Source: a virus
Virus record (IMG/VR): IMGVR_UViG_3300016474_000092
Location: 1 to 37,980 of that record
Length of the DNA stretch: 37,980 bases
Strand: one strand, 5' to 3'
Shown here: positions 683-37,844 of the stretch, piece after piece
Layout: each line of letters opens with the position of its first letter
How positions within the stretch are numbered: position 1 is the first letter of the stretch
Translations under genes and position numbers: made by a program
Notes under the pieces: generated by a model
The model's input: the letters and a program-made list of their open reading frames with translations, nothing else
The model's database searches: none
What the model was told of the DNA's origin: nothing

Positions 683-2602
683 ATGATTCTTTGGTGTGAT
701 TTCGAGACGCGCTCCGAATGCGACCTGCTCGCACGCGGGGCGTACAACTACGCGATGGGCCTGAGCACGGACGTGCTCTGCATGGCGTATGCGTTCGATG
801 ATGAGGACGTGCAGCTCTGGACGCCTGACCAGCCGTTCCCCGAGCGCGTGCGGGCGCATAAGGGTCAGGTGCGTGCGCACAACGCCGCGTTTGAGCGCCT
901 GATCTTCTGGTATGTGTTGCACGTCAACTTTGAGCTTGAGCAGTTCTATTGCACCGCAGCACAAGCCCGGTCCAACTGTGCGCCTGGCTCGCTCGAGGAC
1001 GTGGGCCGGTTTGCTGGCGCGTCGATGAAGAAAGACCATCGTGGCGCGCAATTGGTCAGGAAGTGCTGCATTCCTCCGTTCAAGCACACGCCGCAGGACA
1101 TGCAGGACTTGTTCGAGTATTGCCGTCAAGACGTCCGCGCCATGCGGGCTGTATCGAAGGCCATGCGCGACCTGAGCGCCGATGAGCTGCGCGACTACCA
1201 TGTCAACGAGCGCATCAACGACCGAGGCGTGCTGGTCGATGTTGACCTGTGTCACGCGGCGATGAGATACAGCGAGGCCGAGCGCGTGGAAATCGAGGCG
1301 CGCGTTGTGGAATTGACCGAGGGCATGGTCACGAGCGTGCGCTCGCCTAAACTGCGTCAGTGGGTGCTGGACCGGCTGGGGCCGGAGGCCCGCAAGCTCG
1401 CGCGCTCGAAAGAGCGCGATTCCATTGACAAGACCGTGCGCGCCAATCTGTTGGCGCTCGCAGAGGAAAACCCAGATGAGATACCGCCCGCTGTTGCCGA
1501 GGTCATCCAGTGCGCCGACGACCTATGGGCGTCATCGACTGCGAAGTTTGGCCGCCTCGCATCGTTGGCTGATTCAGAAGATCAGAGAGTGCGAGGTGCA
1601 TTTGTTTTTGCTGGAGGCGCGGCGACAGGTCGAGCGTCAAGCTATGGCGCACAGGTCCACAACTTCCCTCGGCGCGCCGCCAAAAAACCCGTTGATCTTA
1701 GACACGCCCTCGTTCGAGGCCACAGCGTCGTTCCGGCGTTCGGACCGCGAGTCACCGACGTCCTGAAGTCGATGCTTCGCCCGGCGTTGGTTCCCGCGCC
1801 GGGTAAGTCATTTGTCGTCGCCGACTGGAGCGCGATCGAGGGCCGGGTCAACCCGTGGCTGGCGAACAGCGCCGCTGGCGAGCAGAAGCTCGACATCTTC
1901 CGCGAGCGCTTAGATCCGTACAAGGTCAACGCCGCCGCGACCTACGGCGTGGCGTATGAGGCAGTTACCGACGATCAGCGTCAGGTCGGCAAGGTGCAGG
2001 AGCTTGCGCTTGGGTTCGGCGGCTCGACCGGCGCGTTCAGTGCGATGGGTCGCGTCTACGGCGTGCGGTTCGATGAGCCGCAGGCGCGGCGAATCGTTGA
2101 CGCCTGGCGGCGGGCGAACCCGTGGGCCGTGGCCTTCTGGCAGGAATTGGAAAACGCTTACATGAGCGCGATGCGTCACCGTGGGCATGAGTTCAGCGCG
2201 GGGCGCGTGACCTACGTTTACGACGGTCAGCACCTCTGGTACATGCTGCCGTCGGGCCGTGTGCTTTGTTATCCGTACGCGCGCTTCGAGGGCGAGCATC
2301 TGACCTACGCCAAGGCGGCGTGGAAGCCTGCGGCTGATGCGACCGAATGGCCGCGTGCGCGCCTCTGGTCTGGGCTCGCGTGCGAGAACGTGACGCAGTC
2401 AACCGCGCACGATATTTTGAGAGCGGCGCTGCGGCAGGTGCCGGATGTCGTGCTGCATGTCCACGATGAAATCGTTGTCGAGACAGATGAGCCAGACCGT
2501 GCGAAGGCTGAGCTTGAGCGTATGATGACGACCCCACCAGCGTGGGCCGAAGGATTGCCGTTGGCCGTTGAGGCCAAGGTGATGGAGCGTTACGGAAAGT
2601 GA
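683..2602 (+). CDS. Family A DNA polymerase with 3'-5' exonuclease domain
   Basis: Exonuclease motifs CDFETRS, HNAAFERLIF and YCRQDVRAM. Polymerase motif A DWSAIEGRV, motif B RQVGKVQELALGFGGSTGAF, motif C HVHDEIVVE. ATG start. Confidence 0.93.
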   Translation: MILWCDFETRSECDLLARGAYNYAMGLSTDVLCMAYAFDDEDVQLWTPDQPFPERVRAHKGQVRAHNAAFERLIFWYVLHVNFELEQFYCTAAQARSNCAPGSLEDVGRFAGASMKKDHRGAQLVRKCCIPPFKHTPQDMQDLFEYCRQDVRAMRAVSKAMRDLSADELRDYHVNERINDRGVLVDVDLCHAAMRYSEAERVEIEARVVELTEGMVTSVRSPKLRQWVLDRLGPEARKLARSKERDSIDKTVRANLLALAEENPDEIPPAVAEVIQCADDLWASSTAKFGRLASLADSEDQRVRGAFVFAGGAATGRASSYGAQVHNFPRRAAKKPVDLRHALVRGHSVVPAFGPRVTDVLKSMLRPALVPAPGKSFVVADWSAIEGRVNPWLANSAAGEQKLDIFRERLDPYKVNAAATYGVAYEAVTDDQRQVGKVQELALGFGGSTGAFSAMGRVYGVRFDEPQARRIVDAWRRANPWAVAFWQELENAYMSAMRHRGHEFSAGRVTYVYDGQHLWYMLPSGRVLCYPYARFEGEHLTYAKAAWKPAADATEWPRARLWSGLACENVTQSTAHDILRAALRQVPDVVLHVHDEIVVETDEPDRAKAELERMMTTPPAWAEGLPLAVEAKVMERYGK

Positions 2603-2653: not shown

Positions 2654-4981
2654 TTGAACTTCGTTGATTATCTCACATCGTTGGCCGCCGAGGGCGAAAC
2701 CGTACTATTTGTGCGACAGAAGCCGCGCAAGGGCGGCGACGGGCAGTTGCAATATCACGCCGACGGGGCGATCAAGGCGTCATGGCCCGCGTATCTGCCC
2801 GAGCGAGCGCATACGTCTGAGGGCGCGTGGTACTGCAACACTGGGTCATTCATCATCGACCGCTTCACTGACGGCAAGCCTAGCGCTGGGGCCGCCTGTT
2901 GCGAGTACGTGATCTGTCTGGTGCTGGATGACGTTGGGACCGATAAAGCGCCGAGGGCGTCGCCCGTGCCGCCGACTTGGATCATGGAAACGTCCGAGGG
3001 TTGTTACCAGTGGGGCTATGCCTTTTCGGAACAGCCGACCAAAGGCGCGTACAGCGCCGCCATCCGCGCGATCACGCAAGCCGGCTACGGCGACACGGGC
3101 GCGATCAATCCGGTCAGGAACTTTCGCTTGCCGGGTAGCGTAAACCTGAAACCCGATAAGGGCGGCTTTCGCGCGCGTCTGGTCGAGTTTCATCCCGACC
3201 GCGAGTACACGCTCCCCGCGCTCTGCTCCGCGTTGGGCGTCGAGCCGGGGCCGGACGACACCGGCGGCGTGCGCCCGATCAGGTTGAGCGATGACGGGTC
3301 GGATGACGTGCTGGCGTGGTTGTCGGCGCAGGGACTTGTCACCGAGCGCCCGAACGCCGAGGGCTGGGCGGGTGTCGTATGCCCGAACGCGAGTGAGCAT
3401 AGCGACGGCTCGCCCGAGGGCCGTTACTTGGCCGCTAATCGCGCTTATTGTTGCTATCACTCGCACTGCGATGGCTGGGACAGCGCGCGCTTCCTGTCGT
3501 GGGTGGCCGATCAGGGCGGGCCGAAGCATACGCCAGGCTTGCGCGATGAGCTGCTGGCCGCCCGAATGGCCGAGGCGATGTCAAAGCTCACGCCGACCGA
3601 GGCGTTCCCCGACGCGGCGGCTGCAGTGGTGGCCGAGGTCGAGCGCCGCGAGGCGGGACGGGTCGAGCGTGAGGGTTGGTTTGAACGGTTTGCGTACCTT
3701 CACGCCGATGACGGTTACTTTGATCTGATCGAGCGTAAACAATATTCGCGCGGTAACTTCAATGCGATCTATCGGCATATCACTTGTTGGTCGGTGCACG
3801 CCGGGGCCAACGGCAAGAAGCGCCGCGTCGAGGCGTCGATTAGCTTTGACGAAAACCGTCAAGCGATGGGCGCGCGGGTGTTGCAGGGCGTGACCTACGC
3901 GCCGGGCGAAACGGTGCTTGTCGCAAAGTCAGGCGACGTTTACGCGAACCTTTGGCGCGACGCGAGGCCAATCGTCGAGGGCGAGGCCGACGTGCGCCCG
4001 TGGCTTGATCTGGTCGAGCGCCTGCTGCCCGAGGCGTCCGAGCGCGAATACTTGTTCGATTGGATGGCCTATAAGGTCCAACACCCCGAGGTCAAGATCA
4101 ATCATGGCGTGCTGCTAGGCGGTGCGCCGGGTATCGGAAAGGATACGACCTTCGAGCCGTTTTTGTATGCGGTCGGCGGGCCGTCGCGCGAGAATGTCGC
4201 GCTGATCAAGAATGAGGAACTCAATTCTCAATGGGGCTACTCGCTGATGAGCGAGGTGCTGGTCATCAACGAACTGCGCCAGGCCGACGCGTCCGATCGG
4301 CGCGCGCTCGAGAATCGGCTAAAACCCCTGCTAGCTGCGCCCCCGGAACTGATACCGGTTAACCGCAAGGGCTTGCACCCGTTCGATGCGTTGAACCGGT
4401 TGAGTGTGGTCGCATTCTCGAATGAGCGAATGGCGATCACGCTTCCATCGGACGATCGGCGCTGGTACGTGCTCTGGTCCGACGCGCGCCCGTTGACGAA
4501 GGTCGAGGGCGCAGCGATTTGGGACTGGTTCAAGGCCGGCGGGCGGGCCGCCGTGGCCGGTTGGCTGCGCTCGAGGGACGTCAGCGCGTTTGCGCCTGGT
4601 GGCGCGCCCCCGATGACCGAGGCGAAGGCCATCATGCTATCGGCGGGCCTGTCAGCGGTCGAATCGGCGCTAGTCGAGATGATGCGCGAGCGCCGGGGCG
4701 AATTCGCGTTAGGCGCGATTAAAGCCCCCTGGCAGGCGCTCGCGGATCGCCTACAGGCCCAGATGCCAGTCGGCACCAAATGCAACGTATACGCGCTGTT
4801 TCACGCGCTCCGCGAGGCGGGCTGGATTGACCTTGGACGGGTCAAGGCGACCCCGAACGGTAGCAAGGTCCACCTCTACTGTGCGCCTGACGTGCTCGAG
4901 GGTGTAGGGGGTAATCGCGCGGAGATTAAGCGGATGCTTGACAACGCGAGCGGGTCCATCGGTTTGCGAGCGGTGAAATGA
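2654..4981 (+). CDS. Primase-polymerase (AEP-type) fused to a D5/VirE-type P-loop helicase
   Basis: TTG start with AAGGAG at 2641-2646. N-terminal LVLDDVG, ETSEGCYQWGY and RNFRLPGSVN (AEP-like motifs). Zinc motif CPNASEHSD...CCYHSHC. Walker A GGAPGIGKDT and Walker B VLVINE. Confidence 0.88.
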   Translation: MNFVDYLTSLAAEGETVLFVRQKPRKGGDGQLQYHADGAIKASWPAYLPERAHTSEGAWYCNTGSFIIDRFTDGKPSAGAACCEYVICLVLDDVGTDKAPRASPVPPTWIMETSEGCYQWGYAFSEQPTKGAYSAAIRAITQAGYGDTGAINPVRNFRLPGSVNLKPDKGGFRARLVEFHPDREYTLPALCSALGVEPGPDDTGGVRPIRLSDDGSDDVLAWLSAQGLVTERPNAEGWAGVVCPNASEHSDGSPEGRYLAANRAYCCYHSHCDGWDSARFLSWVADQGGPKHTPGLRDELLAARMAEAMSKLTPTEAFPDAAAAVVAEVERREAGRVEREGWFERFAYLHADDGYFDLIERKQYSRGNFNAIYRHITCWSVHAGANGKKRRVEASISFDENRQAMGARVLQGVTYAPGETVLVAKSGDVYANLWRDARPIVEGEADVRPWLDLVERLLPEASEREYLFDWMAYKVQHPEVKINHGVLLGGAPGIGKDTTFEPFLYAVGGPSRENVALIKNEELNSQWGYSLMSEVLVINELRQADASDRRALENRLKPLLAAPPELIPVNRKGLHPFDALNRLSVVAFSNERMAITLPSDDRRWYVLWSDARPLTKVEGAAIWDWFKAGGRAAVAGWLRSRDVSAFAPGGAPPMTEAKAIMLSAGLSAVESALVEMMRERRGEFALGAIKAPWQALADRLQAQMPVGTKCNVYALFHALREAGWIDLGRVKATPNGSKVHLYCAPDVLEGVGGNRAEIKRMLDNASGSIGLRAVK

Positions 4982-5643
4982 CGCCCCTAGTACGCGAATT
5001 GTCGCGCATGGTCCCGACGCCCGAGGAGTCGGTCTGGTTCGACCTGGGCGAGATCGAGGGCGAGATCGTGCTGGACGTGGCGCCCGAGCGATTGCTGCAT
5101 TTACCGTTTGATGATATTGCAATCGTCGGCGTGGTCGAGGGAATCCGGTTTGCCGTCCGCGCGATGGCGGGCAATGAGTCGGTCACAATCGCCGGGTTTA
5201 GGTTCACGCGCGAGGCGCGAGACGATTTCGCGCCATTGACGATTATGGCAGACCCCGAGACGGGCGGATTGCGCGTTTACACGCGCGACAATCGACGAGT
5301 AACGGACCTTGATCGGATCGCGATCGCGATCCTAGATTGCCTGTTAACGCGCCTGGACGGGTCGAAGGCGATCGAGGGATATCGGGCCGAGGTTGCGCGG
5401 ACCTTTACCGCTCGGCGCCAGATGGCGCGCGGGAAAACGCCCGCGTATGCGTGGCGAACCGTAGATGTTACCGCACGCGTGCGGGCCGATCGCGGGCCGG
5501 CGGGCGGGTCACATGCGAGCCCGCGCGCCCATGAGCGCAGAGGGCATTGGCGGACCTTGCCAGCGGGCCGGATTTGGGTTCGCCCGTGCCGGGTCGGTGA
5601 TCCGGCGAGCGGGTCCGTGTTTCACGATTATCGGGTGAAATAA
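4978..5643 (+). CDS. Hypothetical protein (221 aa), last gene of the rightward replication operon
   Basis: ATGA overlap with the primase stop. Basic C-terminus with HERRGHWRTLPAGRIWV. No family recognised. Confidence 0.65.
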   Translation: MTPLVRELSRMVPTPEESVWFDLGEIEGEIVLDVAPERLLHLPFDDIAIVGVVEGIRFAVRAMAGNESVTIAGFRFTREARDDFAPLTIMADPETGGLRVYTRDNRRVTDLDRIAIAILDCLLTRLDGSKAIEGYRAEVARTFTARRQMARGKTPAYAWRTVDVTARVRADRGPAGGSHASPRAHERRGHWRTLPAGRIWVRPCRVGDPASGSVFHDYRVK

Positions 5644-5684: not shown

Positions 5685-5747
5685 CTACAAGCGTAGGACG
5701 ATCGCAAGGATCGCGGCCGCGAGGGCAACCAAGGCGGCCGCGATCAC
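5685..5747 (-). CDS. Possible 20-aa hydrophobic peptide (MIAAALVALAAAILAIVLRL)
   Basis: The GTG start overlaps the TGA of the upstream gene (GTGA). The peptide is entirely hydrophobic. It is below the ORF-track cut-off. Confidence 0.3.
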   Translation of the reverse strand: MIAAALVALAAAILAIVLRL

Positions 5748-6001
5748 TGTTCCGGCCCGAAAATGGTTTCGATCAGGGCAATGCGATCCGCAAACGGCAT
5801 AGCGTCGAATTCGTCGCGCGTCATGGTGCCGAGCGGATCGACGTGATCGGTCCAGAGATCAAAGGATTGCGCGATTTGCGCGTACGAAAGTTTCGATCCG
5901 GCGGCATAAGTCTGTTCCGCTAGCGCCTGGGCGCGCTCGGCAGCGGCGCATGCGCGGTCGAATTCCGGCGTCCCGTCAATTCTCCAGTGTCGTGATCCCA
6001 T
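5744..6001 (-). CDS. Hypothetical protein (85 aa from ATG 6001; TTG 6013 is an alternative start)
   Basis: ORF-track entry 5744..6013. The internal ATG lies 1 nt after the TAA of the upstream peptide ORF (TAAAATG). Confidence 0.6.
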   Translation of the reverse strand: MGSRHWRIDGTPEFDRACAAAERAQALAEQTYAAGSKLSYAQIAQSFDLWTDHVDPLGTMTRDEFDAMPFADRIALIETIFGPEQ

Positions 6002-6002
6002 T

Positions 6003-6131
6003 TTATTTTCCAATCGTAAAAAGAGCGGCCACGAGGCCAGGCACTAGCGCGACGGCCGCGAGGCGATCGGGGAGCGCGAGCGCGGCACCGATCCCGGCGG
6101 CCATGAGGGTGAGGGCAAGAAGGGCGCGCAT
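6003..6131 (-). CDS. 42-aa membrane peptide (MRALLALTLMAAGIGAALALPDRLAAVALVPGLVAALFTIGK)
   Basis: Hand-translated. ATG lies 1 nt after the TGA of the upstream ORF (TGACATG). Two hydrophobic segments. Below the ORF-track cut-off. Confidence 0.5.
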   Translation of the reverse strand: MRALLALTLMAAGIGAALALPDRLAAVALVPGLVAALFTIGK

Positions 6132-6132
6132 G

Positions 6133-6285
6133 TCAGACTCCCATCAAAAGCTTTTTAAGAAAGGGCACAGCAAGCCCCGTGAGATTGGACAATTCGCGCA
6201 ATGTCATATTCGGGTTGTTGTCGTAAAGTCGCTTGATGTCATCAAGGGTTAGACCGTTGACGGATTTTTTGAGCGTGTAGGCCAT
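6133..6285 (-). CDS. 50-aa protein, possibly a small helix-turn-helix regulator (MAYTLKKSVNGLTLDDIKRLYDNNPNMTLRELSNLTGLAVPFLKKLLMGV)
   Basis: Hand-translated. GGAG lies 7 nt upstream of the ATG. The MTLRELSNLTGLAVPFLKKL segment looks like an HTH. Below the ORF-track cut-off. Confidence 0.5.
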   Translation of the reverse strand: MAYTLKKSVNGLTLDDIKRLYDNNPNMTLRELSNLTGLAVPFLKKLLMGV

Positions 6286-6299
6286 GGTGAGATCTCCGA

Positions 6300-6542
6300 T
6301 TAAGCTTGTGGGGCGCGCTCAAGTAGCGCGATCGTGCGAAGATCAGTAATCTCAATCCATCCACCGGGCCGATACCATCGGCCCGCGCACTCATGTGCTA
6401 ATTGCGTGCCGTAAAATCGCGCGCGCTCCGATAGCGTGGTGCCGGGACGATCGTTTAGGTGCTGGGGCTGAACCGAATAAACCGCGCGGTTTCCCGTTTC
6501 AGGGAATGTCACGATAAAGGTCGAATCTGATAATACGGGCAT
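6300..6542 (-). CDS. Hypothetical protein (80 aa)
   Basis: ATG lies 3 nt after the upstream TAA. The ORF fits the operon without overlapping its neighbours. Confidence 0.6.
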   Translation of the reverse strand: MPVLSDSTFIVTFPETGNRAVYSVQPQHLNDRPGTTLSERARFYGTQLAHECAGRWYRPGGWIEITDLRTIALLERAPQA

Positions 6543-6545
6543 GGT

Positions 6546-7277
6546 TTAGGCCCCTACAAAATGGCGCGCCATCGCGCCGTGAACAACGATAGAAACCGAA
6601 GCACGCGCCGCGTTATCGCCCGCGCCGTCGCATGCTTGGCAATCGATACATTGGCGCCGATTGCCACCCTCGGGCGATGCGGGGCAGGCGATCTCGCGCG
6701 CCGCTAAAGGTTGATCGGCCGTGCGCACGGTAAACGTGCGCCAGCCCATAGCGCGTGCAATGTCACGATCGCGTGCGCTATCGGCGCTCGCCATGACGAT
6801 ATCGCGCAGCTCTTGCGCAATCGCACGGCGCCACTGGTGCGAATAGCCGGTATGTCCGGCCGCGTGCGCGATGAGATCGATCCAATGAGCGGCCGGTATC
6901 GCGGCCGGATCGCCGTATGACCCGATGCGCACCACGCGATCGGCGAGCATACGCGCGCCGTCAATCGGGCTGACCAGCGGGTAAGCGCCGCGCGTCCAAG
7001 CGCCGAATATCGACGCGACGGATTGTCCGACGTTGACATAGCACGTGCGCTTGCGGCCGATCGCCGAATCGCCGCGATGCATGCAATCGCCGCAGATTGA
7101 CGCGTCTTCGCCGCTCGCAATCGCGTCTAGCGGGTGTTGATCGGCGCGCAATATATAGGTTTGCACCATGTCGCCAGTTTTGCTGTTATCGCTGCGCAGG
7201 ATTGCAATCCCGACAATTGGCGCGCCGTCAAGCATTGACGGGCCGTCATAGAAAACGAATCCGGTAGGTTTACTCAT
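6546..7277 (-). CDS. Conserved-looking Cys-rich protein of unknown function (243 aa)
   Basis: Motifs ICGDCMHRG, RTCYVNVGQ, GYSHQW and CPASPEGGNRRQCIDCQACDG. Strong GGAG ribosome-binding site. Confidence 0.7.
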   Translation of the reverse strand: MSKPTGFVFYDGPSMLDGAPIVGIAILRSDNSKTGDMVQTYILRADQHPLDAIASGEDASICGDCMHRGDSAIGRKRTCYVNVGQSVASIFGAWTRGAYPLVSPIDGARMLADRVVRIGSYGDPAAIPAAHWIDLIAHAAGHTGYSHQWRRAIAQELRDIVMASADSARDRDIARAMGWRTFTVRTADQPLAAREIACPASPEGGNRRQCIDCQACDGAGDNAARASVSIVVHGAMARHFVGA

Positions 7278-7300
7278 GTCAGTGTCTCCAGGGTGAGAAT

Positions 7301-7318
7301 GCGCGCCCGTAGGCGCGC
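7301..7318 (-). other. Intercistronic hairpin with a UACG tetraloop on the minus-strand RNA
   Basis: The minus-strand RNA reads GCGCGCC-UACG-GGCGCGC. It lies between the stop at 7329 and the start at 7277. Confidence 0.35.
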
Positions 7319-7328
7319 GGTTGGATGA

Positions 7329-7559
7329 TTAAATTTCAAGGTACTCATATCGGCCGGCGTCGTACTCGCGCAGCACAGCGTGCCCGATGTTGTGATCACA
7401 TTCGCAAGCCATAAGCGTGACAACACCGACAATCCCACGGGCGTCGTCCTCGAACATGACGCGCACGTCGGCGATTGGATCGTCGGGTAGCTGCGGTGCG
7501 TCGATGATCAGCACCTGCGGTGTGCCGTAGTTGCGGCCCGTCGTGTAGTGGTATTGCAT
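7329..7559 (-). CDS. Hypothetical protein (76 aa), first gene of the leftward operon
   Basis: ATG at 7559 is preceded by the same CCTGGAGACACTGAC cassette seen in front of the 7277 start. The ORF-track start at 7613 has no ribosome-binding site. Confidence 0.6.
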   Translation of the reverse strand: MQYHYTTGRNYGTPQVLIIDAPQLPDDPIADVRVMFEDDARGIVGVVTLMACECDHNIGHAVLREYDAGRYEYLEI

Positions 7560-7617
7560 GTCAGTGTCTCCAGGTTGATGCGATCGGCGATCGCATAAAC
7601 GACACTCTGCCACATAA

Positions 7618-7623
7618 TTTATA
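7618..7623 (-). promoter_or_regulatory. Candidate -10 element (TATAAA) of a leftward promoter
   Basis: The minus strand reads ATGGGTCATGTAAAAAGAGGGTTGCAATGCTATAAATTATG. An iteron overlaps the -35 position. A 15-bp palindrome at 7580-7594 lies in the predicted leader. Confidence 0.3.
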
Positions 7624-7774
7624 GCATTGCAACCCTCTTTTTACATGACCCATCAGCGTTTGCGACAAGTCTTATGGCAGATGCCCCTATTGTCATCATG
7701 GGGACCCCAGCGGGGTTATGCCATGGGTTATTGACGTGCGCCTGGTTTCATAGGGCAATGGGTCATATGGGTCA

Positions 7775-7840
7775 TTGTTTTGTTTGATACTGTTTAAATG
7801 ATTAAAAATACTGTATAGATATACAGTAGTAAAAATATGG
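7775..7840. other. Strongly AT-rich core of the control region (candidate DNA-unwinding element)
   Basis: The sequence TTGTTTTGTTTGATACTGTTTAAATGATTAAAAATACTGTATAGATATACAGTAGTAAAAATATGG is flanked by iterons in an otherwise GC-rich genome. Confidence 0.4.
7809..7828. promoter_or_regulatory. LexA (SOS) box-like palindrome TACTGTATAGATATACAGTA
   Basis: 19 of 20 positions match the beta/gamma-proteobacterial consensus TACTGTATATATATACAGTA (CTGT-N8-ACAG). Confidence 0.6.
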
Positions 7841-8072
7841 CGCGTAGACGGTACGCGCGCAAAACGTGGCGCCAAAAAAAATGGGGTGACCCATTGACCC
7901 ATTTGACCCATAAACCCCAGCCCCAGCCCCTTTTCCGCCCATTTTCCAGAACCGATTTCCGGTTTCAATGGTCATGACCCATTTGACCCATTGACCCGAT
8001 TCGCGTGTGATTTGAGCGCAAGCCTGCAACCTTGATGGCCATGACCCATGTGACCCATTGGCCGCATGCCTG

Positions 8073-8139
8073 GCTGGCGTGACGTGATAACGTAGCTGGC
8101 GTGACGTTATAACATCACATTGCGTGACGTGATAACGTA
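8073..8139. repeat. Three phased copies of GCGTGACGT(G/T)ATAAC(G/A)T with 22-bp periodicity
   Basis: Tandem 22-mers at 8073-8094 and 8095-8116, with a third core at 8122-8139. They end about 150 bp upstream of the small terminase start. Confidence 0.85.
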
Positions 8140-8151
8140 ACACCCGGCAGC

Positions 8152-8178
8152 TCGGAGCTGGTCGATCGGAGCCGGTCG
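8152..8178. repeat. Direct repeat TCGGAGC(T/C)GGTCG, two copies
   Basis: Copies at 8152-8164 and 8166-8178. Confidence 0.7.
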
Positions 8179-8253
8179 GCTGATAGCCCCCGGTGAGGGC
8201 CGGCGAAAGGTCCGGTCAAAAACGGAGGGGTCGCATAAATTTTTTCTTTTAGT

Positions 8254-8259
8254 TATAAT
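8254..8259 (+). promoter_or_regulatory. Candidate -10 element (perfect TATAAT) of the late/structural promoter
   Basis: AAATTTTTTCTTTTAGTTATAATGA lies 27 nt upstream of the small terminase ATG. The -35 element is poor and there is an AT-rich UP-like tract. Confidence 0.4.
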
Positions 8260-8285
8260 GACCTCACCACACATTCTGTTACGCC

Positions 8286-8726
8286 ATGACTTTCCAGTCA
8301 CTCCCGCTCACCGCGCGTACGCTGACCGCAACAGAGGCGCGTTTGCAGCGCATCTACGACGCTGCCAAGTTAGGTTTGAAAGGCGACGCGCTGGCGCTGA
8401 CAGCAGGCATGCTGCCCACCGAGTATCGGCGTCTGTGTCAGATGGACCCCATCGCAGAAATGGCAGAACTCAAAGGGCGCGCTGATGGTGAGAAAGAGCT
8501 GGCGACCGTTATGATGAACGCGGCGCTGGCAGGCGACTCCAAAGCGGCGCTTGAAGTGCTAAAGCATCGGCACGATTGGGTGGCTAAGCAGCAGGTGCAG
8601 ATCGACGTCGCGCAGCAGATCAGTATTATTAGTGCGCTAGAGCAGGCAGAGCAGCGCGTCATCGACGTGCAGGCCACCGAGAAACTGGAGCCATCACTTG
8701 CAGCAGCCACAGTACAGCGCGTCTGA
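8286..8726 (+). CDS. Terminase small subunit (putative)
   Basis: Lies immediately upstream of the large terminase and overlaps it. The segment AALAGDSKAALEVLKHRHDWV resembles the conserved small-terminase helix motif. 146 aa. Confidence 0.65.
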   Translation: MTFQSLPLTARTLTATEARLQRIYDAAKLGLKGDALALTAGMLPTEYRRLCQMDPIAEMAELKGRADGEKELATVMMNAALAGDSKAALEVLKHRHDWVAKQQVQIDVAQQISIISALEQAEQRVIDVQATEKLEPSLAAATVQRV

Positions 8727-10224
8727 CGAACAGCAGTTGATGGTGCGGCTCTGGCAGCCGCGCATCAAAGACGACCCAGAAGCGTTTGTTCTGTTTGTTT
8801 TTCCCTGGGGCCAGAAGGGCACGCCGCTGGAGCATTACTCAGGGCCGCGCAAATGGCAGCGCAAAATCCTGCGCGATCTGGCCCAGCACATAAAGCAGAA
8901 CAACGGACGCTTAGACTACGACGTCTTCCGGTTAGCGGTCGCGTCAGGTCGCGGGATCGGTAAGTCGGCGCTAGTGTCCTGGCTGGTGTTGTGGATGCTG
9001 ACGACAAGGATCGGCAGCACTACGATCGTGTCGGCTAACAGTGAGGCGCAGCTCCGGTCGATCACCTGGTCAGAGATTACTAAGTGGCTGGCGATGATGT
9101 TGAACAGCCATTGGTTCGAGATCAGCGCAACGCGTGTGACGCCTGCCAAGTGGCTGGCTGAGATTGTCGAGCGGGACTTGAAGAAAGGTACGCGCTTCTG
9201 GTCCATCGAGGGGCGCTTGTGGTCGGAAGAGAACCCGGACGCTTACGCGGGTCTGCACAACCTAGACGGCGTGCTGCTGATCTTTGATGAGGCGTCTGGT
9301 ATTCCAGACCCGATCTGGCAGGTGGCCGCAGGCTTCTTTACGGAAAACACGCCCCATCGGTTCTGGTGCGCGTTTAGCAACCCCCGGCGCAACCAGGGCT
9401 ACTTCTTTGAGTGCTTCAATAGCAAGCGCGACTTCTGGAAAACAGAGAACGTAGACGCCCGCGATGTCGAGGACACCGACAAGCAGATATACGAGCAGAT
9501 CATAGCTGAGTACGGCGAGGACAGCCCGCAGGCCAAGATTGAGGTGTACGGGGAGTTTCCGAGCGCGGGCGATGACCAGTTCATCGGGGCTAGTCTGGTG
9601 GACGCGGCGTTTGCCAGGCCCAAGCACAAGGACGAGACGGCACCGATTGTGATCGGTATTGACCCGGCAAGGTCAGGCGGTGACTCGACAGTCATCGCGG
9701 TGCGGCAGGGGCGGGACATCATCGCAATCAAGCGCTACCGGGGCGACGATACAATGACGACCGTAGGCCACGTCATTGACGCGATCGAGGAGTACAAGCC
9801 CACGCTGACGGTAATCGACGAAGGCGGGCTGGGCTACGGCATACTTGACCGGCTGGTAGAACAGCGGTATAAGGTGCGTGGGGTGAACTTTGGCTGGAAA
9901 GCCAAAAACCAGATCATGTGGGGCAACAAACGCGCTGAGTTGTGGGGCGCGTTGAAGAGTTGGTTAAAGACGGCTAGTATTACGCCTGACAGGCAACTGA
10001 AGGCGGATTTGACCGGGCCAAAGACCAAGCCTGACTCAAGCGGTACGATCTTCTTGGAGAGCAAGAAGGACATGAAAGCAAGGGGTCTAGCCTCTCCCGA
10101 CGCGGCGGACGCGATCGCCGTCACGTTCGCCTATCCGGTTGCCAGCCGTGAGCCCCGAGTTGCCCAGACCCGCAGAACCTTTAGCGACCGCGCCTCGGGC
10201 GCGACGAGCTGGATGGGGGCTTAG
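8698..10224 (+). CDS. Terminase large subunit
   Basis: Walker A-like GRGIGKSA, Walker B LLIFDEASG and nuclease motif IGIDPARSGGDSTV. TTG start with GGAG 7 nt upstream. ATG 8740 is an alternative start. Confidence 0.9.
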   Translation: MQQPQYSASDEQQLMVRLWQPRIKDDPEAFVLFVFPWGQKGTPLEHYSGPRKWQRKILRDLAQHIKQNNGRLDYDVFRLAVASGRGIGKSALVSWLVLWMLTTRIGSTTIVSANSEAQLRSITWSEITKWLAMMLNSHWFEISATRVTPAKWLAEIVERDLKKGTRFWSIEGRLWSEENPDAYAGLHNLDGVLLIFDEASGIPDPIWQVAAGFFTENTPHRFWCAFSNPRRNQGYFFECFNSKRDFWKTENVDARDVEDTDKQIYEQIIAEYGEDSPQAKIEVYGEFPSAGDDQFIGASLVDAAFARPKHKDETAPIVIGIDPARSGGDSTVIAVRQGRDIIAIKRYRGDDTMTTVGHVIDAIEEYKPTLTVIDEGGLGYGILDRLVEQRYKVRGVNFGWKAKNQIMWGNKRAELWGALKSWLKTASITPDRQLKADLTGPKTKPDSSGTIFLESKKDMKARGLASPDAADAIAVTFAYPVASREPRVAQTRRTFSDRASGATSWMGA

Positions 10225-15943: not shown

Positions 15944-16102
15944 ATGCAAGAGTTTGAGATCAAGATCACGGTAGAAGAGGCCAACATCCTGGCGATGGGC
16001 CTCGGCAAACTACCGCTGGAAGTGTCTGTCGCACTCTGGCAGAAGCTGAAATCGCAGGTCGAGCAGCAGGTGCAGCCGCAAGCACCGCTTGACATGAACT
16101 AG
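15944..16102 (+). CDS. Hypothetical protein (52 aa)
   Basis: ATG lies 1 nt after the upstream stop. In frame with ORF-track entry 15845..16102. Confidence 0.5.
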   Translation: MQEFEIKITVEEANILAMGLGKLPLEVSVALWQKLKSQVEQQVQPQAPLDMN

Positions 16103-16105
16103 AAC

Positions 16106-16123
16106 TACTGTATAGATTTACAC
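16106..16123. promoter_or_regulatory. Second, imperfect copy of the SOS-box-like motif (TACTGTATAGATTTACAC)
   Basis: 16 of 18 positions are identical to 7809-7826. The architecture is CTGT-N8-ACAC. Confidence 0.4.
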
Positions 16124-16125
16124 CC

Positions 16126-17014: not shown

Positions 17015-17775
17015 TAAATAATGGTCTCCTCTGGGGGCAACCCCAGTAGAAAAACTGTGTGAATTCGGTGGACGTCATGTATAATGATTGCATGAAAACA
17101 CCGAGCCAAGCCAAAAGTGAAGGTAATCATGATAGTGACAAAGCAGCAGAAGCGCGCGAGGCTAACCGCCAAGCCGCTGCTCGCTATCGTGAACGCAACC
17201 GTGAAGAAGTCAACCGACGCATGCGTGAATGGCGCGAGCAAAACCGTGAAAGAGCACGGGAGCTTTCGCGCGAATGGCGCAACCGAAAATTGGCAAACGC
17301 AAGTCCTGAAGAAGAAGCAGCTATTCGCGCTGCTGAAGCTGCAAAGACCAAGCGCAACCAAGATCGGCGACGCGACGAAGTATTTGCCGCTTATGGCGGG
17401 TACCGTTGCGCATGCTGCGGCGAAACTGAACGGATGTTTTTGTCGATCGACCACATCAACAATGATGGCAACGTCGAGCGTAAGTCTGGTGCGTATCGCA
17501 GCAGCGGCACAGCGTTCTATTTTTGGTTGTGTAAGCACAAGTTCCCGCCAGGCTATCAAGTGCTGTGCATGAACTGTCAGGTCGGTAAGCACAAAAACGG
17601 CGGCGTTTGCCCTCACCAGCGGAAGGTGTAACGACTATCCCGTAAGGGAGTACGGCCAAGCGGCCGGAAGCGCACAGCCCCTCGTAAGAGGGTGAAGAGA
17701 TAGTCTGCTCTGCATGGTGACATGCAGCAGCCCGAAAGGGCGGTCAAGGCGTAGCGAACCTTGGCGAACACATGG
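17015..17775 (+). mobile_element. Group I-like self-splicing intron carrying an HNH homing endonuclease ORF
   Basis: Candidate P1 pairs GAGAU|U with GGUCUC (17023-17028). Candidate P2-P5 and P8 follow in canonical order. Five GNRA-loop hairpins. UGAAGAGAUAGUC (17693-17705) resembles the conserved J8/7-P7 segment. The terminal base is G. Confidence 0.7.
17077..17631 (+). CDS. HNH endonuclease (intron-encoded)
   Basis: CACCGETERMFLSIDHINNDGN and LCMNCQVGKHKNG (HNH/zinc motifs). Basic coiled N-terminus. More AT-rich than the flanking sequence. ATG 17077 and ATG 17092 are both possible starts. Confidence 0.85.
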   Translation: MYNDCMKTPSQAKSEGNHDSDKAAEAREANRQAAARYRERNREEVNRRMREWREQNRERARELSREWRNRKLANASPEEEAAIRAAEAAKTKRNQDRRRDEVFAAYGGYRCACCGETERMFLSIDHINNDGNVERKSGAYRSSGTAFYFWLCKHKFPPGYQVLCMNCQVGKHKNGGVCPHQRKV

Positions 17776-21795: not shown

Positions 21796-22533
21796 ATGAC
21801 CGTTCTCACGCTAAGCGGCAATCAAGTATCAGCAGGCGACATCATCAACGGCTCCCTGCGCTTGCTCGGCGTGCTAGCCGAAGGTGAGACGCCTTCTGCA
21901 GAGACTTCTGCCGATGCGCTGTTAGCCATGAATCAGATGATTGAGTCGTGGAACACCGAACGGCTATCAATTTTTTCGACGCAAGACCAGGTGTTCAGTT
22001 GGCCTGCTACGGTTATCAGCCGAACTATTGGGCCGACGGGCGACTTTGTTGGCAACCGCCCAGTTTTGGTTGACGATGCGACGTACTTCAAAGACCCATC
22101 TACCGGCGTCTCATATGGCATCAAGATCATCAACCAGCAGCAATACGATGGCATTGCGCTGAAGACTGTGCGGAGTACCTATCCGCAGGTCATGTGGATC
22201 AACATGACCTACCCGGACATTGAGGTGTATATCTATCCAGTACCTACGCGGATTCTGGAGTTTCACTTCATCTCGGTGGAAGAGCTGTCGCAGCCCACTA
22301 ATTTAACGACCGTGTTGGCGTTTCCGCCAGGCTACTTGCGAGCGTTCCGGTACAACTTGGCTTGCGAGCTTGCGCCTGAGTTTGGCGTCGAGCCTTCGCG
22401 CCAGGTGCAGCGGATTGCCATGACGTCGAAGCGTAATCTGAAGCGCATCAACAATCCTGACGATCTGATGTCAATCCCGTACAGCATTGTCGGAACGCGG
22501 CAACGCTACAACATATTTGCCGGTAACTACTAA
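21796..22533 (+). CDS. Head-completion/adaptor protein (P22 gp4-like)
   Basis: The N-terminal GDIINGSLRLLGV...ALLAMNQMIESW and the segment AFRYNLACELAPEFG parallel P22 gp4 (LVRAALRKLGV...LEAMMAEW, VFHNLACRIAPDY). Confidence 0.7.
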   Translation: MTVLTLSGNQVSAGDIINGSLRLLGVLAEGETPSAETSADALLAMNQMIESWNTERLSIFSTQDQVFSWPATVISRTIGPTGDFVGNRPVLVDDATYFKDPSTGVSYGIKIINQQQYDGIALKTVRSTYPQVMWINMTYPDIEVYIYPVPTRILEFHFISVEELSQPTNLTTVLAFPPGYLRAFRYNLACELAPEFGVEPSRQVQRIAMTSKRNLKRINNPDDLMSIPYSIVGTRQRYNIFAGNY

Positions 22534-36405: not shown

Positions 36406-36677
36406 CTCACCCCCTTGATAAACGTATCGACATCCTCTACATCCCAAAGCGTCATGTAGTTCTGACCCAGCTTCAGCATGTCGCGCTTGAAGAGTTCCTG
36501 CAGCGTGGACATGCGGCCACCAACCTTCTTAACCTCAACGAACCACACCACGCCGCCTGGCAGCACGACCAGCCGGTCGGCCACGCCACGATGCGCTGGG
36601 CTGACAAACTTGTACGCGATGCCGCCGATGTCCTTGACCCGACGCACCAAATACCTCTCAATATCGCGTTCTAAAAT
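36402..36677 (-). CDS. VRR-NUC domain nuclease. Start uncertain: ATT 36677, TTG 36650 or GTG 36647.
   Basis: GVADRLVVLPGG and WFVEVKK (PD-(D/E)XK core). The in-frame upstream codons encode LERDIERYL, which resembles the conserved VRR-NUC N-terminal helix. Confidence 0.75.
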   Translation of the reverse strand: MLERDIERYLVRRVKDIGGIAYKFVSPAHRGVADRLVVLPGGVVWFVEVKKVGGRMSTLQELFKRDMLKLGQNYMTLWDVEDVDTFIKGVR

Positions 36678-36712
36678 TTTTCATCTCCCGAAGATTTACA
36701 AAGTTTAGACTG

Positions 36713-36741
36713 TTGCAAACTTCAAAGCAAGTGTGTACCAT
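36713..36741 (+). promoter_or_regulatory. Candidate sigma70-type promoter for the rightward replication operon (TTGCAA-17 nt-TACCAT)
   Basis: Hexamers at 36713-36718 and 36736-36741. GGAG ribosome-binding site at 36764-36767, ATG at 36774. Confidence 0.45.
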
Positions 36742-36773
36742 CTGGTTTCGCAAGTCAACTACAGGAGAATCCA

Positions 36774-37844
36774 ATGCACTCGAAAGTCGTCGGCGGCTCG
36801 ACCGCAGAGCGCGTCATCAACTGCCCAGGCAGCGTGGCGCTGGCCGCGCAGATGCCGCCGCAGGAAGAGAACGAGGCCATGCGCGAAGGCACGCGCCGGC
36901 ATGAGCTGATCGCAGAGGTGCTGAACGACAAGCTCGACTCGCGCTCGATCGACGACGAGAAGGTGCTGGACGCACTGGACATCTTCGACATGAAGTTCGA
37001 CCCCACGTCCAAGGCGCTGTTCGACGTCGAGCGCCGCGTAACCTTCCCGTGGGACGCCAGCATCTTTGGCACTGCGGACGTCATCGGCGCGCTCGACAAA
37101 GAGACGGCCTTCGTGATGGATTTCAAGTTCGGCGACAACTATCAAGTCGAGGCGGTCGGAAACGCGCAGATGCTGTTCTACGCCGCTGCTGCCTATGAGA
37201 GCCGCCACTGGGCGTTTCGGGAGCGCGAGTGGGTTGAGCTGGTCATCATTCAGCCGCCTTTCATCCGACGCGACCGCGTGCATGTGGATGACCTGCGCGA
37301 GTTCAGCGCCGACCTGCAGCGTGCGGTCAAGGCAGCGCAAGAGCCTGACGCGCCGCTCGTTGAGGGCGGTCACTGCCGTTTCTGCCCAGCAAAAGCCATC
37401 TGCCCGCTGAAGACCGGCGCTGCCGAGCGGACGATCCGCGTGCAGATCGACAAGATCGGCCCTGAGAACATCGGTCATTGGATGGACGTGGCCCAAAACC
37501 TTGAAGACTGGGCTACCGACGTGCGCAAACTGACGCAGAAGGCGCTTGAGGCTGGCGTGCCGGTGCCGGGCTGGAAGCTCGTGAACAAGCGCGCTCAGCG
37601 GTCGTGGATTGATGAGAAAGCAGCGCAGGCGGCGCTGACCGCGCTCGCGCCTGACGTGAGCTTTACAGAACTCGTGTCGCCCGCGCAGGCCGAGAAGGCG
37701 TTGAAAGCGAAGAAGTTAAAGCTACCCGACGATCTGACCGTCGCGGTATCATCCGGGTTGACCATTGCGGAGGAGGCAGACAGCCGACCCGCAGCGGTCA
37801 CAATCGGGACGACGCTCGTGTCGGCCCTTTCTAAACTAGCGTAA
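36774..37844 (+). CDS. DUF2800-type PD-(D/E)XK (Cas4/RecB-like) nuclease
   Basis: N-terminal GSTAERVINCPGS, VMDFKFG, NAQMLFYA, and the C-terminal Cys cluster GGHCRFCPAKAICP. Confidence 0.85.
   Translation: MHSKVVGGSTAERVINCPGSVALAAQMPPQEENEAMREGTRRHELIAEVLNDKLDSRSIDDEKVLDALDIFDMKFDPTSKALFDVERRVTFPWDASIFGTADVIGALDKETAFVMDFKFGDNYQVEAVGNAQMLFYAAAAYESRHWAFREREWVELVIIQPPFIRRDRVHVDDLREFSADLQRAVKAAQEPDAPLVEGGHCRFCPAKAICPLKTGAAERTIRVQIDKIGPENIGHWMDVAQNLEDWATDVRKLTQKALEAGVPVPGWKLVNKRAQRSWIDEKAAQAALTALAPDVSFTELVSPAQAEKALKAKKLKLPDDLTVAVSSGLTIAEEADSRPAAVTIGTTLVSALSKLA

Follow-up and report, generated by a model that had tools for sequence, protein, structure and literature searches.

A strong LexA box in the AT-rich core of a putative iteron-type replication origin of an uncultured podophage

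The intergenic region and its LexA box

The window, by which we mean the whole 37,980-nucleotide stretch of DNA analyzed here (IMG/VR virus record IMGVR_UViG_3300016474_000092), carries a LexA (SOS) box in the intergenic region between a leftward accessory operon and the rightward late operon. The window is a metagenome contig (ENA ERZ27292627) that was also found in SRR6423809. Its last 22 nt are identical to its first 22 nt and its ends are contiguous in an independently permuted contig, indicating a closed genome of ~37.96 kb. The phage is an uncultured freshwater podophage with a complete 38-kb genome and a P22-like virion module; the GC content is 58%. The accessory operon (5744..7559, minus strand) consists of six genes encoding proteins of 76, 243, 80, 50, 42 and 85 amino acids, the last of which is AcrF31-like. 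The late operon begins with terS (8286-8726, plus strand) and terL (8698-10224, plus strand).

The intergenic region (7560-8285, 726 bp) is organized around an AT-rich core that contains the box. The core (7776..7839) is 64 bp long with a GC content of 20% and represents a putative DNA-unwinding element and promoter region. Within it, the LexA box (TACTGTATAGATATACAGTA, 7809..7828, CTGT-N8-ACAG type) is separated from the first leftward gene by 249 bp and from terS by 457 bp. Iterons of the type TGACCCAT are found on both sides of the core, with two inverted copies on the left and seven or eight direct copies in three clusters on the right. The left pair (7753..7775) reads ATGACCCATATGACCCAT on the minus strand, and inverted repeats I1-I3 pair it with the right arrays. 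The latter belong to direct repeat family D1 and comprise cluster 1 with three TGACCCAT copies (7880..7916), cluster 2 (7968..7996) and cluster 3 (8035..8063), all on the plus strand. An isolated iteron copy, CATGACCCAT (7644..7653, plus strand, direct repeat family D3), is located near the leftward promoter. An extra LexA half-site, TACTGT (7788..7793, plus strand, direct repeat D6), is present 21 bp upstream of the box. In relatives, flanking ACTGT/ACAGT half-sites are likewise frequent, with 13 observed and 2.8 expected from a control that was not composition-matched, a suggestive enrichment of about four-fold.

Two predicted sigma-70 promoters overlap the box. The rightward promoter TTGATA-N17-AATACT (7784..7812, plus strand), identified by a consensus scan, has the best promoter score of the entire window (9.5 by position weight matrix, PWM) and its -10 element overlaps the left edge of the box. 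In the leftward promoter TTTACT-N17-TATTTT (7805..7833, minus strand, PWM score 9.2) the box forms the spacer. A GC-rich hairpin followed by a T-run, terminator-like on the minus strand, is located directly to the right of the core (7840..7858). A second terminator-like hairpin with a T-run (7880-7895, minus strand) and a weak minus-strand promoter (7968-7941) are found further right. Together, the minus-strand hairpins and the weak promoter could delimit a short RNA, antisense or non-coding, that crosses the iterons on the right.

The box is a near-perfect LexA site and is unique in the window. It matches the 20-bp consensus TACTGTATATATATACAGTA at 19 of 20 positions, with CTGT and ACAG both intact, a spacer of ATAGATAT and a single mismatch, G at position 10. 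No other site with three or fewer mismatches exists in the window, and none of 100 dinucleotide-preserving shuffles yielded any. Using a symmetrised weight matrix, approximate because it was assembled from a set of 26 literature SOS boxes of E. coli, we obtained a score of 29.5 bits for the box; the training sites themselves range from 13.8 to 29.9 bits (median 20.5), and the best scores in each of 200 Markov-1 random genomes have a mean of 11.0 and a maximum of 19.3 bits. In strength the box equals the best chromosomal SOS boxes, and a chance origin is excluded. The original prediction, a near-consensus LexA box with one central mismatch that lies between divergent operons and is flanked by iterons, is thus borne out by sequence, shuffles, weight-matrix scoring and the coordinates of repeats and genes.

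Two further candidate sites in the window were rejected. The CTGT-N8-ACAG pattern occurs twice (0.41 expected), and the second occurrence (11332) has a GC-rich spacer and lies within the portal gene; it was treated as chance or coding sequence. A secondary site at 22223 (19.2 bits) is a coding coincidence: it encodes EVYIYP and drifts synonymously in 80 relatives, in which CTGT/CCAG is not kept. In addition, TTGACA-N16-TATAGA upstream of the scaffold gene (16089-16125) contains TACTGTATAGAT, which matches the main box exactly over its left 12 nt. ACAG is missing from the other half of this site, and the site scores 15.5 bits on the LexA matrix; it may represent an internal promoter with a LexA half-site.

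Conservation of the box in relatives

The box is far better conserved than its surroundings. Among 61 TerL-anchored relatives with enough upstream sequence, 21 carry a 20-mer with at most three mismatches to the consensus, ten of them perfect. It is located 778-910 bp upstream of terL in 20 of the 21 and 1427 bp upstream in one, the distance in the window being 889 bp. Across 15 non-redundant lineages anchored on the box, pairwise identity is 86% within the box and drops to 28-33% in each of the 20-nt windows beside it. None of these lineages deviates from CTGT or ACAG (2.0 bits), and changes are confined to the spacer and the outer bases, a pattern that is the information profile of LexA sites. 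Inverted iteron arrays surround the AT-rich core in every lineage examined, box or no box, and the iteron word differs between lineages (TGACCCAT, TACCCCA, TAGGTCA/TAGCCTA, GTAGCCAT, GTAGCCATG, TGACAAT, TGACACAT, CATGACACACA and others). Because the box remains constant while the neighbouring phage-specific iterons change, it looks like the site of a host factor.

The box is also enriched in this phage family at large. In 2.9 million IMG/VR contigs the perfect 20-mer is found in 86 stretches (80 loci), and 55 of the 80 loci belong to the family. All 55 perfect boxes are located a few hundred bp upstream of terS, including those of members with a GC content of 0.38-0.47 and TerS proteins of 35-50% identity. 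A matrix scan across 1.1 Mb of family loci returned 77 matches of at least 16 bits, 70 of which represent the core box.

Some relatives that lack the box carry other palindromes in its place: ATGTTATAACGTAACAT in L101 and L105, AGTATATAAGCATATACT in L122 and GTTATAAC repeats in L112. It seems, therefore, that operators are interchangeable at a regulated site in the core, with the LexA box as one module among several. The same observation allows a different explanation, in which the palindrome is bound by a phage protein or another host protein, or serves as a structural origin element, and resembles the LexA consensus by coincidence. Palindromes may simply be favoured at this position, and AT-rich ones are common in origins. 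We consider this explanation most unlikely, given that the match spans the whole 20-position consensus with a chance expectation of about 0, that invariant and variable positions follow the pattern of LexA sites, that iterons change between lineages and the box does not, and that no conserved phage protein co-occurs with the box. A repeat element to the right of the iterons shows some similarity to these palindromes. Three copies of GCGTGACGTGATAACGTA are present at 8077-8139, and their core GATAACGTAAC resembles the GTTATAACGTAACAT palindromes that fill the position of the LexA box in L101, L105 and L112. These repeats may be the site of a second regulator. The matching place in other lineages holds unrelated short tandem repeats (GGCTGAC, GGCGGGCT).

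In one lineage, a LexA-type site is also found at a second position. L102 and L103 carry another LexA-type box (TGCTGTACAAATACCCAGTA, 20.8 bits, and AACTGTACAAATATCCAGTA, 25.3 bits; L102 5552-5571, L103 5540-5559) over the terS promoter, with 35-55 nt between it and the start codon of terS. The other 91 of 93 loci with a terS start lack this box, and an unregulated TGCTATAAT is found there in other lineages. Selection in the family therefore appears to have favoured direct LexA control of the packaging or late promoter on at least one occasion. The second box is of interest for yet another explanation, namely that the site acts as a decoy which, on the replicating genome, titrates LexA and de-represses the host SOS regulon without any role in cis. 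The preference for a perfect consensus (10 of 21 boxes and the 55 family loci with the perfect 20-mer) and the presence of one site per genome, tied to no single gene, would suit a decoy. A decoy would have no need of a fixed position in the middle of an AT-rich core, several sites would work better than one, the second box of L102 and L103 lies exactly on a promoter, and our literature searches turned up no precedent for a phage LexA decoy; this explanation is accordingly given very little credence. Taken together, the conserved box with its diverged flanks and iterons, the enrichment in the family and the second box of L102 and L103 lend strong comparative support to the initial proposal that host LexA may gate a promoter or the origin of this phage.

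A putative origin and its proposed control by LexA

The organization of the intergenic region is similar to that of known iteron-type origins, and by this analogy we infer that it is a replication origin, probably with embedded promoters. P4 alpha with its ori/crr is a comparable case. In the origins of staphylococcal pathogenicity islands (SaPIs), an AT-rich centre separates two equal sets of short iterons, 6-12 in total and opposite in orientation. The iterons are recognised by a self-loading Rep helicase through its C-terminal winged-helix domain, and in SaPI5 this helicase is primase-fused (PMC9371898). Similarly, the window has 2 inverted and 7-8 direct TGACCCAT iterons around its 20% GC core and encodes a fused primase-helicase. 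Among relatives, the C-terminus of this protein tends to vary together with the iteron word, L095 excepted. In contrast to SaPI origins, which are located directly downstream of rep, 2.6 kb of accessory genes intervene in the window. Also in contrast to the window, no LexA site has been described in SaPI or P4 origins, and binding of an initiator to the iterons is presumed here by analogy.

The best candidate for an iteron binder is the fused primase-helicase (2654..4981, plus strand), a putative origin-binding initiator with a RepB_primase-like N-terminus and a DUF5906 helicase (matches in Pfam and PHROGs, besides a weak primase match in the PDB). Its C-terminal ~115 residues form clusters that largely follow the iterons. 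TACCCCA is the word of 18 of 19 loci in the largest cluster, and the other multi-member clusters mostly contain one word, L144 being mixed and L107 and L109 less clear; this association is confounded by shared ancestry. TerS was rejected as the iteron (pac) binder because the TerS of L090 is virtually identical to that of the TACCCCA lineage, yet the iterons of L090 are TGACCCAT. In L136, L137, L144 and L151 the iterons are DnaA-box-like (TTGTCCACA/TTATCCACA), with 5-12 copies in an inverted layout upstream of terS and almost none elsewhere in each locus, so some family members may recruit host DnaA.

On balance, we think it somewhat probable that the box is a functional high-affinity operator for host LexA in the AT-rich centre of an iteron-type origin/control region, which it would place under SOS control. 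Host SOS would then probably help to decide the timing of phage replication or particle making. In an undamaged cell, a LexA dimer would occupy the core and occlude the sigma-70 promoter or promoters whose -10 element or spacer overlaps the box, and/or hinder melting of the core by the self-loading primase-helicase of the phage, thereby holding back origin firing and origin-driven transcription. External damage or the infection itself would lead to LexA self-cleavage triggered by RecA* (SOS). The core would thus be freed and lytic development could proceed.

Several points weigh against this proposal. The box is missing from 40 of the 61 relatives, which contain nothing closer than seven mismatches, and L090, L095 and L096 (TerL 90% identical, TGACCCAT iterons) keep the core without the box. 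With about two thirds of relatives lacking it, the box is best seen as an accessory or optional operator and not as core machinery. Just one full box is present in the window; the Bacillus thuringiensis tectivirus GIL01 uses several together with a co-factor. The promoter PWM, applied to 22 lineages, places a -10 element or spacer on the box on both strands, giving candidates in either direction, and both neighbouring operons have promoter elements of their own. The leftward operon possesses a conserved extended -10, TGCTATAAAT (7617-7626, minus strand), ~50 nt from its first gene, and the late operon a TATAAT (8254-8259) 26 bp upstream of the terS start codon. As for the initiator, L095 (IMGVR_UViG_3300044911_001532) combines 15 TGACCC-type iterons with a primase C-terminus 100% identical to that of the TACCCCA lineage, indicating either that L095 is a chimeric assembly or that the iterons are read by something other than the primase C-terminus. 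A structure predicted for this domain from a single sequence was unusable (predicted local distance difference test score, pLDDT, 39.8), which makes the winged-helix assignment one by analogy. The host assignment comes solely from binning with metagenome-assembled genomes (MAGs), and some bins are clearly wrong. Finally, our literature search returned no paper on a LexA site inside a phage origin or together with a phage iteron origin, and nothing relevant on LexA boxes in virulent phages.

The promoter predictions around the box also permit purely transcriptional explanations. In the first, a core promoter reads rightward through the right iterons into terS-terL, and LexA gates mainly packaging and late genes instead of replication. 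The top-scoring promoter of the window is rightward with its -10 on the box edge, most lineages have a rightward -10 at box offsets -2, 0, 5-9 or 13, and L102 and L103 place their second LexA box on the terS-proximal promoter. Read-through from the core is possible since the conserved GC-rich element ahead of terS lacks the structure of a terminator. There is also a precedent: host LexA directly controls the terS-containing packaging operon I of SaPIs (PMC3152322, citing Ubeda 2007). The two cases are alike in that L102 and L103 have a LexA box on the terS promoter and that the box of the window is the nearest operator-like site upstream of terS. They differ in that SaPIs are integrated satellites with an Stl repressor, Gram-positive hosts and another LexA motif, and in that the box of the window is 457 bp away from a terS with its own unregulated -10. 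This -10 (in the L086 group TGCTATAAT, with no LexA box) speaks against rightward control, because a block at the core would not stop the late genes. It would moreover be unusual for a leader to span 457 nt and be full of iterons, and the terS-proximal box is found in only one lineage among 93 loci. Overall, we regard control confined to rightward transcription as unlikely, if still worth keeping in view.

The element between the core and terS is a DNA motif at 8187-8249 (plus strand) that is present in nearly all family loci whatever their iteron type. It reads ...AGGGCCGGCG-N8-10-CCGGTCAAAAACGGAGGGGTCGCAyAAATTTTTTaTTTTTT. A role as terminator or attenuator between the box and terS was rejected, as neither a significant fold (z = -0.07) nor covariation was found, and for the same reasons we treat it as a DNA-level motif. 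Possible roles are those of an activator site for the late promoter or of a signal for packaging or terminal repeats.

Transcription in the opposite direction is a second such explanation. Here, the box would control a promoter feeding the accessory operon (7559->5744) and make anti-defence and accessory functions SOS-dependent. The predicted TTTACT-17-TATTTT promoter with the box as its spacer (9.2 in the window, and likewise found in the L086 and L088 groups) and the TATAAT- or TATAAA-like hexamers that often lie just right of the box on the minus strand are in line with this. So is the distant phage L080, in which a LexA-like box is found 25 nt upstream of a gene pair that includes a homologue of the 243-amino acid protein. 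Against it stand the conserved extended -10 of the operon itself and the finding that box presence is uncorrelated with any gene of the accessory operon; the two terminator-like minus-strand hairpins just upstream oppose transcription from further right, not a start at the box. We consider leftward control improbable as the sole function of the box. Among relatives, no accessory-operon gene was found that tracks box presence or iteron type. L080 contains two LexA-like boxes, AACTGTATAAAAACACAGGA (5785-5804) and TACTGTATAAAACCACAGTA (4729-4748), the first of which precedes the small gene in front of the homologue.

Known LexA-controlled elements, host and gene content

The closest parallel to LexA control as proposed here, in which host LexA gates a combined origin and control region, is GIL01. 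This tectivirus does not encode a CI-type repressor; its lytic development is restrained by the LexA of the host, which binds SOS boxes in a phage promoter, and the prophage is extrachromosomal with no obvious plasmid modules (PMC4551915, PMC6182141, PMC11511902). Likewise, no repressor, integrase or partition gene was detected in the window, and a strong LexA box is located in its central control region. Differences are substantial. GIL01 is a linear, protein-primed tectivirus with a Gram-positive host and a GAAC-type motif, whereas the window represents a tailed podophage with a probable betaproteobacterial host. GIL01 relies on several dinBoxes at P1, the co-factor gp7 and the LexA-like activator gp6, whereas the window has a single CTGT-N8-ACAG box. 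No analogue of gp7 or gp6 was identified, and the scanned open reading frames (ORFs) yielded no S24 or LexA-like domain; gp7-like proteins are too small and divergent to be recognised in this way. The several boxes on a replication-gene promoter that characterize GIL01 are not found here, since the second divergent region (36650-36774), the promoter region of the replication operons, lacks a LexA box and the window contains one full box plus a half-site. GIL01 forms lysogens; for the phage of the window, lysogeny is a hypothesis.

In the temperate coliphage 186 (tum), Gifsy phages and N15 (antC), and in CTXphi (PrstA), a LexA box of the gamma-proteobacterial type on the phage genome links development to SOS. 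These phages have a repressor of their own (CI or RstR), with which LexA cooperates unless it acts by controlling an antirepressor gene. Unlike them, the window has no recognisable repressor, or antirepressor beside the box. The box would extend the known co-option of LexA, as in GIL01 and SaPI operon I, and would not be a new principle.

We detected no integrase, serine recombinase, CI/Cro-type repressor, excisionase, S24 peptidase or ParAB in the main called ORFs with Pfam, PHROGs and NCBIfam. These scans covered the closed genome, in which several small ORFs have no assigned function, and they agree with the original prediction, which had found no integrase, CI-like repressor or excisionase. 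A tentative and, in our view, rather doubtful extension of our proposal is that in these abundant, lytic-looking podophages of freshwater Betaproteobacteria LexA is the sole 'repressor', with one perfect box in the melting region of a self-loading-helicase origin licensing replication and, in one lineage, a terS box adding packaging control, and that these tailed phages of Gram-negative hosts enter a non-integrating, SOS-inducible latent or carrier state. If true, this would be the first case of LexA acting directly at a viral replication origin, and co-option of LexA would reach beyond the promoters of temperate phages. Lifestyle prediction relies on integrase and repressor genes, and phages of the window type are scored as virulent; many 'lytic' environmental phages could then persist silently and burst upon DNA damage, for example by ultraviolet light in lakes, and models of pseudolysogeny, induction and virus-host dynamics for fresh water would change. 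Relatives with and without the box and with near-identical control regions, such as the window and L090, represent a natural experimental series. In addition, the box could be used as a host-range marker pointing to hosts whose LexA recognises CTGT-N8-ACAG.

The phage has many relatives among uncultured viruses, and its host is probably a member of the Burkholderiales. Among 50,697 deposited phages no relatives were found at the nucleotide level. Of the named genomes, DSL-LC05, an uncultured lake phage, is nearest in TerL (68%); it lacks the box and is laid out differently. The Ralstonia podophages DU_RP_II, RpY1 and C22 (47%) follow. IMG/VR contains at least 599 TerL relatives, the complete ones being 36-41 kb in size. 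A search of 185,579 species genomes found close relatives, with TerL proteins 62-89% identical, solely on short free contigs; none has flanks of host DNA, which fits a lytic or an episomal lifestyle alike. They are mostly binned with MAGs of freshwater Burkholderiales (Rhodoferax, Fluviibacter, Rhodocyclaceae, Burkholderiaceae). In most beta- and gamma-proteobacteria, Comamonadaceae included, LexA recognises CTGT-N8-ACAG (PMC3323433, PMC6595937). Bins and motif literature are both consistent with a Burkholderiales host, and the beta/gamma-proteobacterial host first suggested on the strength of the motif fits this picture.

In its gene content, the accessory operon resembles an accessory or anti-defence gene island. 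Its last gene (5744-6013, minus strand) matches the anti-CRISPR family AcrF31 in Pfam (E = 7e-8). Type I-F CRISPR systems are present in beta- and gamma-proteobacteria, and an AcrF31-like gene would fit the host proposed above. The gene content of the operon is hypervariable among relatives: the first gene, encoding 76 amino acids, is found in only one other locus, and the gene for the 243-amino acid protein is scattered among lineages. The latter protein (6546-7277, minus strand) is Cys-rich and belongs to phrog_2554, for which no function is annotated. Its homologues, 45-50% identical, are found in phages of Caulobacter, Mycobacterium, Gordonia, Roseobacter, Klebsiella and Microcystis, and searches against the PDB and NCBIfam returned no match. 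Outside the operon, a 221-amino acid protein encoded after the primase (4978-5643, plus strand) has a weak precomputed AcrVA2-like match.

The remaining genes form three operons. The rightward replication operon wraps around the window ends and encodes a DUF2800/PD-(D/E)XK exonuclease (36774-37844, plus strand), a 217-amino acid protein, PolA (683-2602, plus strand) and the primase-helicase. A leftward operon ending in a SNF2 helicase extends from about 36650 to 34199. The late operon (8286->33943, rightward) continues after terS and terL with genes for a P22-type portal, scaffold, major head, adaptor and gp10-like proteins, and also encodes a tail fibre, ejection proteins and a GH108 endolysin. 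Scans of the window for tRNAs and Rfam families gave no matches. In the region 17059-17770, an ORF for an HNH endonuclease is found between the scaffold and major head genes. About 150 bp (17615-17770) are 77-82% identical to T4-like Salmonella and Escherichia phages and a Xanthomonas phage, in regions annotated as homing endonucleases or intron-containing td/nrd genes; Rfam detected no intron in the window. The similarity suggests a mobile endonuclease cassette or an intron remnant.

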